NCBI GenBank assembly: GCA_034431195.1
Contig: DAOUDP010000016.1
Coordinates: forward strand, 1,839-65,838
Direction: 5' to 3'
From: Dehalococcoidia bacterium
GTDB lineage: Bacteria > Chloroflexota > Dehalococcoidia > GIF9 > AB-539-J10
DNA length: 64,000 nucleotides
Shown: piece after piece, positions 6,592-62,985 of the stretch
How the letters are laid out: each line of letters begins with the position of its first letter
Position numbering within the stretch: position 1 is the first letter of the stretch
Notes under the pieces: model-generated
Database searches by the model: none
What the model saw: the letters and a program-made list of their open reading frames with translations, nothing else
Told to the model about the DNA's origin: nothing
Program-made: the position numbers and the translations under genes

Positions 6592-6835
6592 AGGCTGCCT
6601 TTCTCAAGCTTCTGGAGACTGGGGTCAATCAATGAGAGCTTTCAATTCTGGGGACATAATACCCGAGTTAAATCACCTCTACCTTGACGGGAGAGGATTA
6701 AGGTGAGGGTGTTAAACGCAGGTAGGTACTTGCCACGCCGACAAAGAAGTAGATCAAGTGCTGTACCAGTATTGGGGACATAATACTTGATTTGTAGTAG
6801 GCTTGGTTAGTATTGTGTTCCTGGAATTCATAGGA
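6592..6835 (+). repeat. Mosaic repeat R1: PPC-gene tail fragment (…LKLLETGVNQ*) + module b + module d; related to 7183-7590 and 14266-14830
   Basis: Direct comparison of the three loci: shared strings gtcaatcaatgagagctttcaattctggggacataatacccgagttaaatc.cctctaccttgacgggagaggattaaggtgagggtgtta and tgatttgtagtagg…tagtattg.gttcct. Confidence 0.7.
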
Positions 6836-6843
6836 GGTTAACA

Positions 6844-7296
6844 ATGAAAGCATGTGAAGGACGAATAGGCCGGGTTTTCGTGATACGGCTTGAGGATGGG
6901 GATGTGGTGCCCGAATGTATTGAGCGTTTTGCCGAGGGGAGCGGAGTATTTGTGGGACATGCTATCTTAGTGGGTGGAATTGGAGCTGGTGATGTTGTTG
7001 TTGGCCCGCGACGTTCAGAAGAAAGGCCGCCAACGCCAATGCTCTTGCCCATTGACGGAGCACATGAGGTGGTGGGAGTGGGCGTACTCGCTCCCGGTGA
7101 AGATGGCAAACCGGCTCTGCATATCCATGCTGCGCTGGGACGGGCAGGACAAACCATGACCGGATGCCTGCGGTATGGCGTCACGACATGGCTTATAGGG
7201 GAGGTTATCCTTTATGAAATCCTCGGCGCGGACGTGGCGCGTATCAAGGACGAGCAGAGTGGCTTCGAGCTTCTGGAGCCTGGGATCAATCAATGA
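6844..7296 (+). CDS. PPC (DUF296) domain protein
   Basis: 150 aa. Gly/Val-rich PPC-type core (…GHAILVGGIGAGDVVVGP…HIHAALG…). Its last ~37 codons are duplicated at 14493-14616. Confidence 0.55.
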   Translation: MKACEGRIGRVFVIRLEDGDVVPECIERFAEGSGVFVGHAILVGGIGAGDVVVGPRRSEERPPTPMLLPIDGAHEVVGVGVLAPGEDGKPALHIHAALGRAGQTMTGCLRYGVTTWLIGEVILYEILGADVARIKDEQSGFELLEPGINQ

Positions 7297-7590
7297 GAGC
7301 TTTTTATTCTAGGGAATGATAACGGATGTCATTGCGAGCCCCTTCTCCCTCTGTCATTGCGAGCCAAAGGCGTGGCAATCTAGGTGGCAGGGTATTCAAT
7401 GGCATTTGAGAAATGATACCTGATTTGTACTACGCCTAACTAGTATTGTGTCATCGGAAATCCTCCCCTTTCTTAAAGTCTCCAATCGTGGCCCTTCTAA
7501 GAAAGCCCGTTTGTTCCTTTCGTTTTGCAAATCCAACCAAGGTCTCGTGCGTATAGTTCTGGAAGAAATTTGGGAAATTGCTGCATTAAA
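7183..7590 (+). repeat. Repeat block R2: genuine PPC 3' end + module c x2 (tgtcattgcgagcc…) + module d + module e
   Basis: 7183-7296 is ~93 % identical to 14493-14616. Module c (gtcattgcgagcc.aaggcgtggcaatc.aggtggcagggtattcaatggcatttgagaaatgat) matches 14723-14788. Module e (7520-7590) matches 14266-14336. Confidence 0.7.
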
Positions 7591-7666
7591 ATGGCTGGTC
7601 CTTCAGCTTAACCTGCCGCGGGGACTGATTTTGGATGGCTGGAGTGAATGAGCCATGGTATAGTGT

Positions 7667-8446
7667 GTGTATCGATACGATATATGGCTGATGAAACAAC
7701 GGACTGTTACCAGAGGAAGGTTAGATGATGTTTTGGCCAGCCCCAATACTGTATCTAAAACAGATGTTATAACCATATATGCTAGCCCTGGTTCCTTTCC
7801 AGGTTATATTAACAGCATATCACCCGAGGCGATTTCCAGTGCATGTATTAATGAAATTAAACAGTCAGCTAATCTCGAGGTTGTTATCAAAAAAGCTGGG
7901 AGATACAAAACGGGAGCTGCTATATTCTGGGATGCACATGAAAATAAACATATAGTGTTGCCGCCATTCCCTATTGCTGAGGATAGAACTTTAATTAACC
8001 AGCTTGATACTTCACTCTTGTTTAAAGTATTGGATAGAAAATACACCATAGGTGTCATGCTGGTAACATGGGGTTCGTATGCTGTAGGAGTTTTCGACGG
8101 TGGCAATCTCATACAATCAAAAGTGGGCACTGGATATATACATAAGGAGCATAAGAAGGGAGGCAGAAGTCAAAAGAGATTTGCCAGGAGAACCGAAGAG
8201 CAAAAGAAGGATTTTCTGAGGAAAGTTGGTAACAGAATCGATGAGATATTCGCGCAATGTACCTTAGACCATATCTTCTTTGGTGGAAATAGGTTAATTC
8301 TTAAGCCACTATTGCCAGAGTGTCGATATCTAGAATCAAAAACTGAGAAAATCTCAAGAAGGATTTTAGATGTAAGACGTGCTGACAGGGAAGTCTTGAA
8401 TAATAGTCTATCGGAGATAATGAAATCGGTAGTCTTTAGTTTTTGA
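7667..8446 (+). CDS. bacterial eRF1/Vms1-like release-factor family protein (baeRF1; likely acVLRF1-type peptidyl-tRNA hydrolase)
   Basis: 259 aa. HKKGGRSQKRFARRTEEQKKDFLRKVGNRIDEIF matches the eRF1 catalytic loop [28 protein letters not shown], with GGQ altered to GG-R-SQ. Low GC relative to neighbours. Confidence 0.6.
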   Translation: MYRYDIWLMKQRTVTRGRLDDVLASPNTVSKTDVITIYASPGSFPGYINSISPEAISSACINEIKQSANLEVVIKKAGRYKTGAAIFWDAHENKHIVLPPFPIAEDRTLINQLDTSLLFKVLDRKYTIGVMLVTWGSYAVGVFDGGNLIQSKVGTGYIHKEHKKGGRSQKRFARRTEEQKKDFLRKVGNRIDEIFAQCTLDHIFFGGNRLILKPLLPECRYLESKTEKISRRILDVRRADREVLNNSLSEIMKSVVFSF

Positions 8447-8597: not shown

Positions 8598-9044
8598 CTA
8601 CTTTTTAGGAGTCCAGTGTAATCTTGAAATAAACATCCCAACGTTACTCTTGTACTCACAATATTCCTGCCCAAATCGATGTTCTAGCTCCCTTTCTTCC
8701 CATAGTACTATCTGCAGGTAAACTATGGCTAACACCGCAATGGTCGCTATCAGACCAGTAATAGACTTAAAGCCCATAGCTACACTAAACGATAAGACTG
8801 CGCAGGATAAGCAAACCGAATGCCTGATGTAAGAATAAATGCCTTTTGTAACTAGCATGGATTTATCGCGGCCAATCAGGATCTTTGGTGGGCAGGCTTT
8901 CAGTCCCAGAGCCAGGAGCGACATGCCCAGGATGGCAAGAAAAGCACATGCCAAATAACTTGCCCAATCCGCCAGTGGCAATAAAGGCCAACCGAATTTA
9001 TTAGTAAAGAAACATACACCGAATACCACTATAACCCAGGGCAC
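8598..9044 (-). CDS. isoprenylcysteine carboxyl methyltransferase (ICMT/PEMT)-family membrane methyltransferase
   Basis: 148 aa, 4 predicted TM helices. C-terminal …VTKGIYSYIRHSVCLS…EERELEHRFGQEY is typical of ICMT-family SAM-binding tails. Confidence 0.55.
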   Translation of the reverse strand: MPWVIVVFGVCFFTNKFGWPLLPLADWASYLACAFLAILGMSLLALGLKACPPKILIGRDKSMLVTKGIYSYIRHSVCLSCAVLSFSVAMGFKSITGLIATIAVLAIVYLQIVLWEERELEHRFGQEYCEYKSNVGMFISRLHWTPKK

Positions 9045-14265: not shown

Positions 14266-14830
14266 TCGTTCTGCAATTTCAACCAACGTCTCGTGCGTAT
14301 AGTTCTGGAAGAAACTTGGGAAATTGCTGCATTTCCTCTTTATTATGCTTGCGTAAAGCGCTGCGATAGAGCCGAGGCGTCTTTGCTGGGAGTCGAAATG
14401 TCGAGCGCATCTGCGTTCCGTAGGATTCCTCCTGATACTCGTGAACAAGCCAGGCGATGGGCACGTCGTCCTGACCGAGGATACTGGCTGCCACGACATG
14501 GCTTGTAGGGGAGGTTATCCTCTATGAAATCCTCGGCGCGGACATGGCGCGTATCAAGGACGAGCAGAGTGGCTTCGAGCTTCTGGAGCCTCGGGTCAAT
14601 CAATGAGAGCTTTCAATTCTGGGGACATAATACCCGAGTTAAATCTCCTCTACCTTGACGGGAGAGGATTAAGGTGAGGGTGTTAGATGCAGATGGACAC
14701 GTGTCGCAATAATATGGTTGGGTGTCATTGCGAGCCGAAGGCGTGGCAATCCAGGTGGCAGGGTATTCAATGGCATTTGAGAAATGATGCTTGATTTGTA
14801 GTAGGTCTGATTAGTATTGCGTTCCTAACC
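14266..14830 (+). repeat. Repeat block R3: module e + duplicated PPC 3' fragment + modules b, c, d
   Basis: 14266-14336 matches 7520-7590; 14493-14616 matches 7183-7296; 14617-14692 matches 6640-6716; 14723-14830 matches 7351-7458 and 6770-6835. Confidence 0.7.
14493..14616 (+). pseudogene. duplicated 3' fragment of the PPC/DUF296 gene (TTWLVGEVILYEILGADMARIKDEQSGFELLEPRVNQ*)
   Basis: In-frame copy of the last ~37 codons of gene 6844-7296 with about 8 substitutions; no upstream coding continuation. Confidence 0.6.
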
Positions 14831-14833
14831 ACA

Positions 14834-14870
14834 CGAGATTGCTTCGTCGCCTACGCTCCTCGCAATGACA
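14834..14870 (+). repeat. copy of the gagattgcttcg…ctcgcaatgaca hairpin repeat family
   Basis: Shares termini with 24926-24955, 27424-27485, 59261-59415 and the tgtcattgcgag copies in R2/R3. Confidence 0.6.
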
Positions 14871-24900: not shown

Positions 24901-24965
24901 ACCCTGAGCGATAACGAAGGGTCTCGAGATTGCTTCGCTTCGCTCGCAATGACAGGGGAAGGGCT
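24901..24965 (+). repeat. hairpin repeat (…gagattgcttcgcttcgctcgcaatgacag…), source of a spurious 'LRFARNDR' N-terminal extension
   Basis: Same family as 14834-14870, 27421-27490 and 59261-59415. Its translation gives the MLRFARNDRGRAQNG prefix of track ORF 24930. Confidence 0.65.
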
Positions 24966-27420: not shown

Positions 27421-27490
27421 TGGGATTGCTTCGTCCCCTTCGCTTCGCTCTGGGCTGCGGCTCACAGCGCTTCTCGCAATGACAAAGAGG
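27421..27490 (+). repeat. hairpin repeat copy (gattgcttcg…ctcgcaatgaca) immediately downstream of lysC; possible terminator
   Basis: Shares termini with the other family copies; sits just after the lysC stop. Confidence 0.55.
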
Positions 27491-59260: not shown

Positions 59261-59415
59261 CTGTCATTGCCAGGCATACCCCCTTTTTGTCATTGCGAGG
59301 CATACCCCCTTTTGTCATTGCGAGGAGTGTTAGCGACGAAGCAATCTCTGGGAAGGGGCGAGATTGCCAGTCCTTCGTTTCATGTCATTCTGAGCGTAGC
59401 GAAGAATCTCCTCGT
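59261..59415 (+). repeat. cluster of three tgtcattgc(g/c)agg copies plus agcgacgaagcaatctc and a degenerate gtcattctgagcgtagcgaagaatctc copy (hairpin repeat family)
   Basis: Direct reading; same family as 24901-24965 and the other copies. Lies between the convergent etfA and dockerin-like genes, so likely terminator-like. Confidence 0.65.
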
Positions 59416-59507: not shown

Positions 59508-60830
59508 TCAAACTAAGTCTCCATGTTGATCCCAGTTAGCATACATTAGTGACCTGTCCTCAAGAGTAATCCATCCATCGCGATTGAAGTCACAATGAGG
59601 ATTCCAATTAGGGTCACCTTCGTGGGAGTCCCAGGCTGCATAGAGCAGAGACCTGTCTTCAAGGGTAACCCAATCATCGTTATTGGCATCGCCCTCACGA
59701 GTGGTGCCAAAGTCAACCATCGCCTCACCACGCAAGTCCACCCCAGTCTCCAGCTCGCTGAGACATGTCCAGTTCTTAATTCCGATGTCATAGGTGCCAG
59801 GAGTAAGGTCAGTAATGTTGAAAACCCCGGTCTCGTTGGTGGTGGCAGTCCCTTCCCACAGCACGTTGTCGAGATTACCGGGCTCGAATAACTTCACCTC
59901 AAAGGGCTCTATCCACCTATCATCGGGAGGGTCACCCCGTCCTGCGAAACTAACGACTCCCTTCAAGATACCAGCGTGGTAAGGTTTGAACACCGTGTCG
60001 CTCACGACTCCGCTCCCACTCCATAGTTGCGAGTCGTCTAGGATAGTTGTGCCGGTATATTTCCAGCACACCCAGTCATCGAAGGAATACGCTTTGTTCA
60101 CGCCGTCATAGGTTGAAGTACCAACTCTCCATCCTTGGTATGTCCAGGTTATGTAAGCAGTGTCCATGTGGCACACCCGCCCCTCAGCATAACGCCAATC
60201 AGTACCATCGTAATAACAAGCATGGGCGTTTAGTTCTTGCCAGTTTGTTGTCGTAATGGCTTGTTGACTCTCCACTCCAAATTGAAAATGCTTATACCAA
60301 TTACCACCATGTGACTGCCTCCCAACCAGGAAATTGCTGTCGCTGGTTGGGTGATTCCACAAATAGACATCGGTTGGCTCGTCGTTGTTATAAGCGGTGG
60401 AATCCTGATATACATAAAGAGTGTAGATTACCTTGCCGTAGGCAATATCCATCCTTTCGTAGTAAAAGAGGTAGTAGCCTCTGCCAACATCCCGAATAGG
60501 TCCAGCATATTTCTGGCTGTTTTCATGCCATCCCTGAGGTTGCCATTTTACATAATTGTTCCTCATCAGACCCACAACATTCTGGTATGTCCATCCTGAG
60601 GGTGAAAGTCCACTGCCACCGGCTACGCTCGAAACGCCCATCAAATGTGTGAAATATGGAATCTGGTCAGCCTGCGTCCCGGCATAATTAACAGTGACCA
60701 ACACTCTGTCTGTAATATTAGCGTTTTCCTTCAGATATCCACCCATGTAAGGTCCCGCTTCGACTTGCACAGGGACCAGGACGAGAAGGAAAGCCAGGAC
60801 GATTAGAGTGGCAAGGATTCCCTTAGTCAC
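59508..60830 (-). CDS. secreted protein with Trp/Tyr-rich N-domain, CarD/prealbumin-like beta-sandwich and C-terminal dockerin-like EF-hand pair
   Basis: Signal peptide MTKGILATLIVLAFLLVLVPVQVEA; duplicated Ca-loop segments DANNDDWVTLEDRSLLYAAW and DFNRDGWITLEDRSLMYANW. GTG start overlaps the upstream gene stop. Confidence 0.5.
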   Translation of the reverse strand: MTKGILATLIVLAFLLVLVPVQVEAGPYMGGYLKENANITDRVLVTVNYAGTQADQIPYFTHLMGVSSVAGGSGLSPSGWTYQNVVGLMRNNYVKWQPQGWHENSQKYAGPIRDVGRGYYLFYYERMDIAYGKVIYTLYVYQDSTAYNNDEPTDVYLWNHPTSDSNFLVGRQSHGGNWYKHFQFGVESQQAITTTNWQELNAHACYYDGTDWRYAEGRVCHMDTAYITWTYQGWRVGTSTYDGVNKAYSFDDWVCWKYTGTTILDDSQLWSGSGVVSDTVFKPYHAGILKGVVSFAGRGDPPDDRWIEPFEVKLFEPGNLDNVLWEGTATTNETGVFNITDLTPGTYDIGIKNWTCLSELETGVDLRGEAMVDFGTTREGDANNDDWVTLEDRSLLYAAWDSHEGDPNWNPHCDFNRDGWITLEDRSLMYANWDQHGDLV

Positions 60831-61473: not shown

Positions 61474-61700
61474 CCTGGGGGGCGGTTTGTAAATCTTATG
61501 CGACCTCCACTTGCGCTATCTCTTTAGCCAGCTCCATATCGCTTTCAGCGGAGGCATTGCCAGCAAGAGCAGGACTTATTGGCAGCAGAAGCATGGCTAA
61601 TACGATGCCTAGAACCAATTTCACATTCTTTCTTTTCATTGCTTCCGTCCTAACTTAAAACCGGCTTACTCAGGATAAACCTGCACGCCTTCGTCACCCC
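61474..61700 (+). repeat. ~227-bp direct repeat, copy 1 (second copy 63110-63335): 3' end of blade-repeat gene + small-peptide ORF
   Basis: About 90 % identity by eye over the whole length. Confidence 0.7.
61496..61639 (-). CDS. small secreted peptide ORF (47 aa: signal peptide + 21-aa acidic tail)
   Basis: Manual ORF MKRKNVKLVLGIVLAMLLLPISPALAGNASAESDMELAKEIAQVEVA. N-terminus resembles the signal peptide of the adjacent lipoprotein, so it may be a gene remnant. Confidence 0.3.
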   Translation of the reverse strand: MKRKNVKLVLGIVLAMLLLPISPALAGNASAESDMELAKEIAQVEVA

Positions 61701-62985
61701 ACAGCACCTTGCCCTGGGAGTCTATCCTTTGAGCGTAGAGCGTATCCCGATAACAAACGTACTTGCCTGTCTCTGTAACGAGGATAGCACCGCCGGAACT
61801 ATCGCTTACCACCGAGTACACAAACTCGGGAAAATCAGCCTGCCGCCCAGTGAATAGCTGCACTCCTCCCTCTCCCCACATTGGCTCACCATCAGGATTA
61901 ATCCTTTGGGCGCGAGGTGATGGTCCATACTCTTTAGGAGGTCTCCCAGCAACGATAGCTCCGCCGGAACCATCATCAGTAATGCTACGCATGTCAATAG
62001 AAAGATTCATCGGCTCTGCCCATTGAAGCTCCCCTTCTGAATTCACCCTCTGCGCCTGTCGGTACCAGACTACGATGGCTCCTCCAGCGTTATCTGGTGT
62101 TATCGCAACGCTGGGAGAAGGGGCTGTTATGGGTAAGGCACCGAGTTGTATTCCTTCTTTTTCCCACAGGAGTTTCCCATCAGGGCTTAATCTCTGAACG
62201 CAAGCTTGAGGATAGTCAAAACGTGGCCCTAGCCAGGCTACAATGGCGCCATCGGAGCCATCGCTCACAATCTGAGGAGTGGTCTGAGCATGCTGTGGAG
62301 CGCATACCGGAATGCCACCCTCCGGCCACAAAATTTCACCCTCCGGGCTTATTCTCTGAGCGTAGATGTCATACTGCCCACTAGCAGCACGATTATCTGG
62401 CCAGACTACGATAGCACCACCTGAGCCGTCAGCTAATATACGAGGCTTATTATCACTACCAGGTGTCAGTGTAGTGCATATTGTAATTCCCTCCTTCGAC
62501 CACATCACCTTACCTTCATGGTCTATCCTTTGCATCTTGCCTCCTGAGGCTATGATGACCCCTCCATAGCCATCGGGCACCATATCACATACGCAACCAA
62601 CCCCGGACACTGGTTTTCCTCCTTGCCCCCAGAGGAATTCGCCCTCGGAATTAATTCTTTGAGCACAAACGCCTCTCTCAGCTTCGCCCCAGACAACGAT
62701 AGCACCGCCGGAGCCATCCCTAATCACATGAAGCGGGCACCACAGCCGAGTAGTGTTCAGTACCAACCCTTCTCCCCAGCGGAGATTGCCTTCAGAGTCT
62801 ATTCGCTGGGCGTATGCTACATTTTCATCTTCCCAGCTAACGAAGACGCCTCCTGAGCCATCGGGAGTGACATCATGGTAGAGACATTTGTAACGAGGGG
62901 GCCATTCAATGTCAATACAGCCACTGAACAATACTGCTACAGCTGTCATCAAAGCTAAGGCCATCAATGCCCATTTCTTGCTCAT
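61666..62985 (-). CDS. lipoprotein with eight tandem ~48-aa repeats (putative beta-propeller)
   Basis: Lipobox LFSGC; repeats of the form DGSGGAIVVW…YAQRI..EGE.LW.EGG. Confidence 0.5.
   Translation of the reverse strand: MSKKWALMALALMTAVAVLFSGCIDIEWPPRYKCLYHDVTPDGSGGVFVSWEDENVAYAQRIDSEGNLRWGEGLVLNTTRLWCPLHVIRDGSGGAIVVWGEAERGVCAQRINSEGEFLWGQGGKPVSGVGCVCDMVPDGYGGVIIASGGKMQRIDHEGKVMWSKEGITICTTLTPGSDNKPRILADGSGGAIVVWPDNRAASGQYDIYAQRISPEGEILWPEGGIPVCAPQHAQTTPQIVSDGSDGAIVAWLGPRFDYPQACVQRLSPDGKLLWEKEGIQLGALPITAPSPSVAITPDNAGGAIVVWYRQAQRVNSEGELQWAEPMNLSIDMRSITDDGSGGAIVAGRPPKEYGPSPRAQRINPDGEPMWGEGGVQLFTGRQADFPEFVYSVVSDSSGGAILVTETGKYVCYRDTLYAQRIDSQGKVLWGDEGVQVYPE

Follow-up and report, generated by a model that had tools for sequence, protein, structure and literature searches.

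A two-domain acVLRF1-family relative of eRF1 and Vms1, probably a ribosome-rescue factor, in Dehalococcoidia

Overview

A stretch of 64,000 nucleotides from contig DAOUDP010000016.1 of a Dehalococcoidia bacterium (assembly GCA_034431195.1; the whole analysed stretch is referred to below as the window) encodes, at 7691–8446 of the plus strand, a typical member of the bacterial acVLRF1 family of ribosome factors, which resemble eRF1 and Vms1. On balance, we favour the reading that this two-domain acVLRF-1 protein detaches nascent chains independently of a GTPase and of a codon, and that its gene is a vertically inherited, housekeeping-type gene of Dehalococcoidia-like Chloroflexota. By analogy with better known factors, the protein probably frees stalled ribosomes. 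The identification follows directly from a Pfam scan and adds one member to a known, uncharacterised family, which was defined computationally by Burroughs and Aravind in 2019 (PMC6514570).

Family assignment and domain layout

Pfam acVLRF1 (PF18859) matches the protein with 83.2 bits (gathering threshold 27.1; E = 2.4e-23) over profile positions 2–124 of 130, and a HMMER search of 177,635 PDB sequences recovers the archaeal release factor aRF1 (3agk, E = 1.2e-7) and S. pombe eRF1 (3e20, E = 2.5e-3). The HMMER alignment reproduces the GGQ loop of eRF1/aRF1 and the helix that follows it residue by residue; judged from the sequences, this similarity to the eRF1 loop is far beyond chance. A first-pass annotation, made from the letters alone, had proposed both the eRF1/Vms1-type homology and the near residue-for-residue match to the loop, and these proposals are borne out. 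It had also pointed to the Pfam models eRF1_2, VLRF1 and acVLRF1 as a check; eRF1_2 and acVLRF1 match, together with baeRF as the only Pfam models at E ≤ 10, and VLRF1 finds no match in the protein at that threshold. The central domain is nearest to aRF1 in sequence and structure, and close homologues (P0094, P0097) are named 'Vms1/Ankzf1 family peptidyl-tRNA hydrolase' by NCBI.

The open reading frame (ORF) is present exactly as the first-pass annotation had given it, opening with GTG and spanning 259 amino acids (7667–8446, plus strand). The true start is most likely the ATG at 7691, since the N termini of homologues align there and, of the 120 closest ones, almost all have a length of about 250 amino acids and 97% query coverage; residue numbers below refer to the resulting protein of 251 amino acids plus stop. 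The gene is under purifying selection: compared with its orthologue in L077, a metagenomic relative whose protein is 94% identical, the ratio of nonsynonymous to synonymous substitution rates (dN/dS) is 0.16. Scans for promoters and terminators in its surroundings gave results at chance level only.

The protein comprises an N-terminal region (residues 1–104; 7691–8002), apparently a degenerate remnant of the codon-recognition domain of aRF1/eRF1, and the eRF1 central (M, RNase H-like) domain (residues 105–251; 8003–8443), to which the Pfam acVLRF1 match belongs (approximately residues 119–243). The catalytic-loop motif GGRSQ (G157, G158, R159, S160 and Q161; 8159–8173) sits in the loop between strand 3 and the next helix, is enclosed by the segment HKKGGRSQKRFARRTEEQKKDFLRKVGNRIDEIF (8150–8251) and is followed by a conserved basic helix, KRFARRTEEQKKDFLRKV (8174–8227). 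There are 156 residues before the GG, close to the 150 or so counted at first, and 90 after the loop instead of the roughly 60 then claimed; these 90 complete the central domain. In agreement with this, the secondary structure of the full-length model shows a complete RNase H-like domain and no extra domains within the 251 residues. Because the protein ends 90 residues past the loop and eRF1_3 does not match, the eRF1_3/Pelota-type C-terminal domain (domain 3) is absent, as the first-pass annotation had said. In eRF1, Pelota and Balon this C-terminal domain docks the delivering GTPase.

The catalytic loop and its conservation

The published motif of acVLRF-1 and of the archaeal aVLRF-1 is GGxSQ, and that of Vms1 and bVLRF-1 is GxuQ (PMC6514570); GGRSQ is therefore the family consensus and not a peculiarity of the window copy. 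The protein has the canonical loop Gln. Its GGR aligns with the GGQ of aRF1, the aRF1 loop being GGQSQ, and G158-R159-S160-Q161 fits the G-x-tiny-Q definition of GxuQ in the same study, so that the early description of a GGQ replaced by GGRSQ, with the Gln shifted as in Vms1, is accurate. The Arg of the motif varies freely: among close homologues its position is taken by R, S, M or W, and the orthologue with 94–95% identity has Ser.

Conservation across the family was assessed in 128 representatives of 50%-identity clusters from an exhaustive phmmer search. The GG is present in 100% of them, Ser160 in 99%, and Arg163 and Arg166 of the basic helix in 98% each, and the segment from K144 to R163 spans 20 residues in 122 of 122 measurable representatives. 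Twenty-one representatives (16%), essentially one clade, have the Gln directly before the GG instead (QGGSS[A/S]), and about 2% have GGQSA. The association of a Gln at −1 with loss of the Gln at +5 (Fisher p = 1e-9) was considered as independent covariation and rejected, as it largely reflects that one clade. Ten loop variants, GGSSA and GGSSS forms among them, all have Pfam acVLRF1 as their best match. A homologue in the complete Chloroflexota chromosome CP070642.1 (6001–6513) matches query residues 1–172 only and may be a truncated or frameshifted copy.

The N-terminal region

The published account describes the N-terminal region of acVLRF-1 as a 'distinctive short extension' that replaces a lost codon-binding domain (PMC6514570). 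The corresponding region of the window protein, about 100 residues, appears by contrast to be homologous to the N domain of aRF1 (hhalign, 94.9%, P = 4.4e-8; 1.4% for a reversed control). This relationship is found by profile–profile comparison only: a hidden Markov model (HMM) of the N-terminal region alone has no match in the PDB at E ≤ 10. An AlphaFold2 model of the region alone is unusable, with a predicted local distance difference test score (pLDDT) of 51; the same residues have a pLDDT of 72–93 in the full-length model. The alignment has a gap where aRF1 carries its NIKS loop, and a YxCxxxF-type motif is not conserved, but a TGAAIFW...VLPPFPI hairpin is. The region appears to be a shrunken eRF1-type N domain that has lost the stop-codon-reading NIKS loop; the eRF1 domain-1-like domain suggested at first would thus be present in a degenerate form.

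Proposed mechanism and comparison with known factors

The mechanistic steps are modelled on eRF1, ArfB and Vms1/ANKZF1 (reviewed in PMC7026593 and PMC8012679). Working by itself, the protein would depend on neither a GTPase nor stop-codon reading; it would enter an empty A site, either in a stalled ribosome or in a 50S subunit with peptidyl-tRNA still bound. The GGxSQ loop would be inserted beside the peptidyl-transferase centre, and the nascent chain would be detached either by hydrolysis of the peptidyl-tRNA ester in the manner of eRF1 and ArfB, or by removal of the tRNA 3′-CCA in the manner of ANKZF1/Vms1. Two activities have been reported for Vms1/ANKZF1 itself: Gln-dependent release, and tRNA 3′-CCA cleavage that leaves a 2′,3′-cyclic phosphate (PMC7026593). 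As far as sequences can tell, an invariant GG-x-S and arginines alongside a replaceable Gln do not decide between hydrolysis and CCA cleavage. A bolder proposal, which we regard as possible but doubtful, is that the Dehalococcoidia-type acVLRF-1 is a minimal 'mini-eRF1', built of a relic N domain and a catalytic domain, and is the bacterial counterpart of Vms1/ANKZF1, freeing nascent chains on 50S subunits that are obstructed or on non-stop 70S ribosomes, perhaps through CCA cleavage and not Gln-directed hydrolysis. This would account for a Gln that can be displaced or replaced by Glu, Ala or Ser next to a GG-x-S and arginines that do not vary.

Several observations weigh against the favoured reading of the protein as a nascent-chain-detaching acVLRF-1. 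The NCBIfam acVLRF1 model (NF041024) scores 95.3 bits, below its curated cutoff of 125, over model positions 48–199 of 208, and the N-terminal part of that model is unmatched. The Gln at motif position 5 is found in 69% of the representatives; 17 (13%), two of them seemingly truncated, have no Gln at −1, 3 or 5, and among the 120 closest homologues from Dehalococcoidia at least 13 have Glu instead of the loop Gln. Since the Gln is absent, shifted or replaced by Glu in so many members, purely Gln-dependent hydrolysis cannot, on sequence grounds, be the universal mechanism of the family. Every functional step is drawn by homology, and full-text searches turned up no bench study of any acVLRF-1 member; the family is treated in a single paper, the 2019 computational study (PMC6514570). 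The first-pass annotation had likewise spoken of a computationally predicted Actinobacteria/Chloroflexi clade devoid of bench work, and the literature agrees.

Among known systems, the acVLRF-1 family fits best: it scores highest and, like the window protein, has a GGxSQ loop and an arginine-rich helix, lacks a C-terminal domain, is encoded by standalone genes and occurs in Chloroflexi. The archaeal aVLRF-1, by its published description (PMC6514570), shares GGxSQ, the lack of a C-terminal domain and, apparently, a codon-binding-type N domain joined to a central domain; it differs in a long N-terminal coiled coil, absent from the window protein. Vms1/ANKZF1 shares the GxuQ motif. It differs in its Rei1 zinc finger, ankyrin repeats, VIM and Cdc48 partner, all missing here, and Vms1 acts on 60S subunits in the multi-protein pathway of ribosome-associated quality control (RQC). 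The window protein keeps the second Gly, unlike Vms1/ANKZF1. aRF1/eRF1 has GGQ where the window protein has GGR with the Gln two residues later, and has a NIKS loop, domain 3 and a three-domain layout, none of which is found here; lacking domain 3, the window protein would have no eRF3/aEF1alpha partner. ArfB (YaeJ) is a functional analogue only: a small, standalone peptidyl-tRNA hydrolase that acts on stalled ribosomes independently of GTPases and codons, it has an unrelated fold (the bacterial RF-PH domain), and its C-terminal helix, which senses the empty mRNA channel, has no counterpart in the window protein.

Chief among the alternatives is an A-site binder with no catalytic role that would, like Balon or Pelota, serve in hibernation, anti-association or splitting, and whose eRF1-like domain would only occupy the A site and the peptidyl-transferase centre. 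We consider it unlikely because the loop is far more constrained than in the inactive baeRF-1 families and the features that define Balon are absent. The window protein carries the canonical GGxSQ with its Gln, and the GG and the loop length are invariant across the family and the Ser nearly so, unlike the unconstrained loops of inactive baeRF-1 (PMC6514570). Balon/Rv2629 has three domains, binds EF-Tu via domain 3 and has no GGQ (PMC10901736), whereas the window protein has two domains and keeps the GG of the loop; the Rv2629/Balon model NF052289 scores 14.1 bits against a cutoff of 320. A class-I termination factor that depends on stop codons and acts alongside RF1/RF2 or in their place would be in keeping with the apparent homology of the N-terminal region to the aRF1 codon-recognition domain and with a central domain closest to that of aRF1. 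This possibility is most improbable, as the NIKS loop, a YxCxxxF-type motif and domain 3 are all missing, neither eRF1_1 nor eRF1_3 is detected in the Pfam scan, the aRF1_eRF1 equivalog model TIGR03676 scores 49.7 against a cutoff of 234.7, and bacterial aeRF-1 homologues never displaced RF1/RF2 (PMC6514570).

Genomic context

The acVLRF1 gene follows genes for M24, M28 and zincin peptidases, an SDR protein, a 55-residue membrane protein and a PCC-domain protein, and is followed by a PEMT-like ORF on the opposite strand, DAHP synthase and an FtsX/ABC pair. Farther along, the window encodes MgsA, rubrerythrin, IscS/NifU, phosphoglycerate mutase, aspartokinase, FabD, DnaB, GroEL, an H+-pyrophosphatase and FeoB, together with one tRNA-Pro; it is core chromosome. 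There are no matches to integrases, transposases or defence genes, and PADLOC returns no defence match for the acVLRF1 gene or its neighbours. A 568-residue ORF considered as an RqcH-like candidate is FeoB, and there is no RQC gene in the window. Two ORFs of about 440 amino acids (59508–60830 and 61666–62985, both on the minus strand) have no Pfam match at E ≤ 0.001.

The 75 related loci, from species-level genomes of the collection searched, lie in Dehalococcoidia/Chloroflexota metagenome-assembled genomes with two exceptions, of which one is labelled Deltaproteobacteria and the other is an unclassified 'bacterium'; a standalone gene with Chloroflexi hosts fits the Actinobacteria/Chloroflexi range of acVLRF-1. 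Among 69 related loci there is no operon partner conserved family-wide. In 17 of them a rhomboid gene lies directly upstream on the same strand with a median gap of 16 nt (e.g. 7282–7899 in locus L001); the pair, which is absent here, may be a sub-lineage operon. HPF/RaiA-like genes occur upstream of acVLRF1 in three loci, and a leucyl-tRNA synthetase gene is divergent from it in eight.

The first-pass annotation had placed the gene on a repeat-flanked, low-GC island acquired horizontally. The idea that it is cargo of such an island, possibly a conflict or defence module, draws on the guanine-plus-cytosine (GC) content of the gene, at 0.392 the lowest of the 54 window genes (mean 0.470, z = −2.05), on intergenic repeats and window-specific insertions just upstream, and on the PEMT-like ORF (8598–9044, minus strand), which is missing from the closest relative, L077. 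We hold it to be very unlikely. The low GC content is real, but the flanks of the gene are housekeeping genes free of mobile-element or defence matches. At other loci, too, homologues have a lower GC content than the genes beside them (by 0.019 on average; 41 of 58 loci; Wilcoxon p = 3e-5), so that low GC looks like a trait of the gene family and not a sign of recent transfer. The long repeat pairs, 6604–6654/7265–7315 (88% identity) and 6771–6829/7404–7462 (73%), bracket not the acVLRF1 gene but the GC-rich PCC-domain gene (6844–7296; GC about 0.58), whose 3′ end and downstream spacer are duplicated upstream of it; the first pair also occurs in L077, and the arrangement suggests that the PCC gene region underwent a tandem duplication long ago, of which this is a remnant.

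The short motif TGTCATTGCGAGCC / TGTCATTGCGAG(CC) is a dispersed intergenic repeat, with nine copies in the window at up to two mismatches against 0.54 expected (7327–7340, 7352–7365 and 14723–14736; 14857–14870, 24941–24954 and 27471–27484 on the minus strand; and three copies within 59262–59326). It looks like a repetitive extragenic palindromic (REP)-like element of the genome; the REP-like region upstream of the acVLRF1 gene folds no better than shuffled sequences (z = −0.11). L077 keeps the order SDR, small ORF, PCC, acVLRF1 and DAHP synthase, with 330 nt between acVLRF1 and DAHP synthase in place of the 1064 nt found here. Extra intergenic segments relative to L077 comprise about 124 nt (around 6664–6787), bounded by a TGGGGACATAATAC direct repeat, and about 175 nt (around 7423–7597); together with the extra PEMT-like ORF they are small-scale indel polymorphisms. 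Because the long repeats bracket the PCC gene, the short motif is dispersed and homologues are likewise GC-poor, the inference of an island and of horizontal acquisition is unsupported: the acVLRF1 gene is not on a mobile island, and the conserved gene order and lack of mobile genes speak for the same conclusion.

Perspective

The acVLRF-1 family is one of few bacterial relatives of the eukaryotic/archaeal release factor and a prokaryotic cousin of the RQC factor Vms1/ANKZF1. The window copy itself adds little beyond one more member, and the features that had been flagged as unusual are the family norm. Yet a standalone member of about 250 residues offers a simple system in which to ask whether a Vms1-like loop works by ester hydrolysis or by tRNA cleavage, and which stalled complexes are rescued through acVLRF-1 in Chloroflexi and Actinobacteria. 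The apparently relic N domain and the invariant GG-x-S and arginines with a variable Gln are observations at the level of the family and may guide mutagenesis; should the 'mini-eRF1' proposal prove true, there would be no simpler system than acVLRF-1 for deciding between hydrolase and nuclease in the Vms1 clade.
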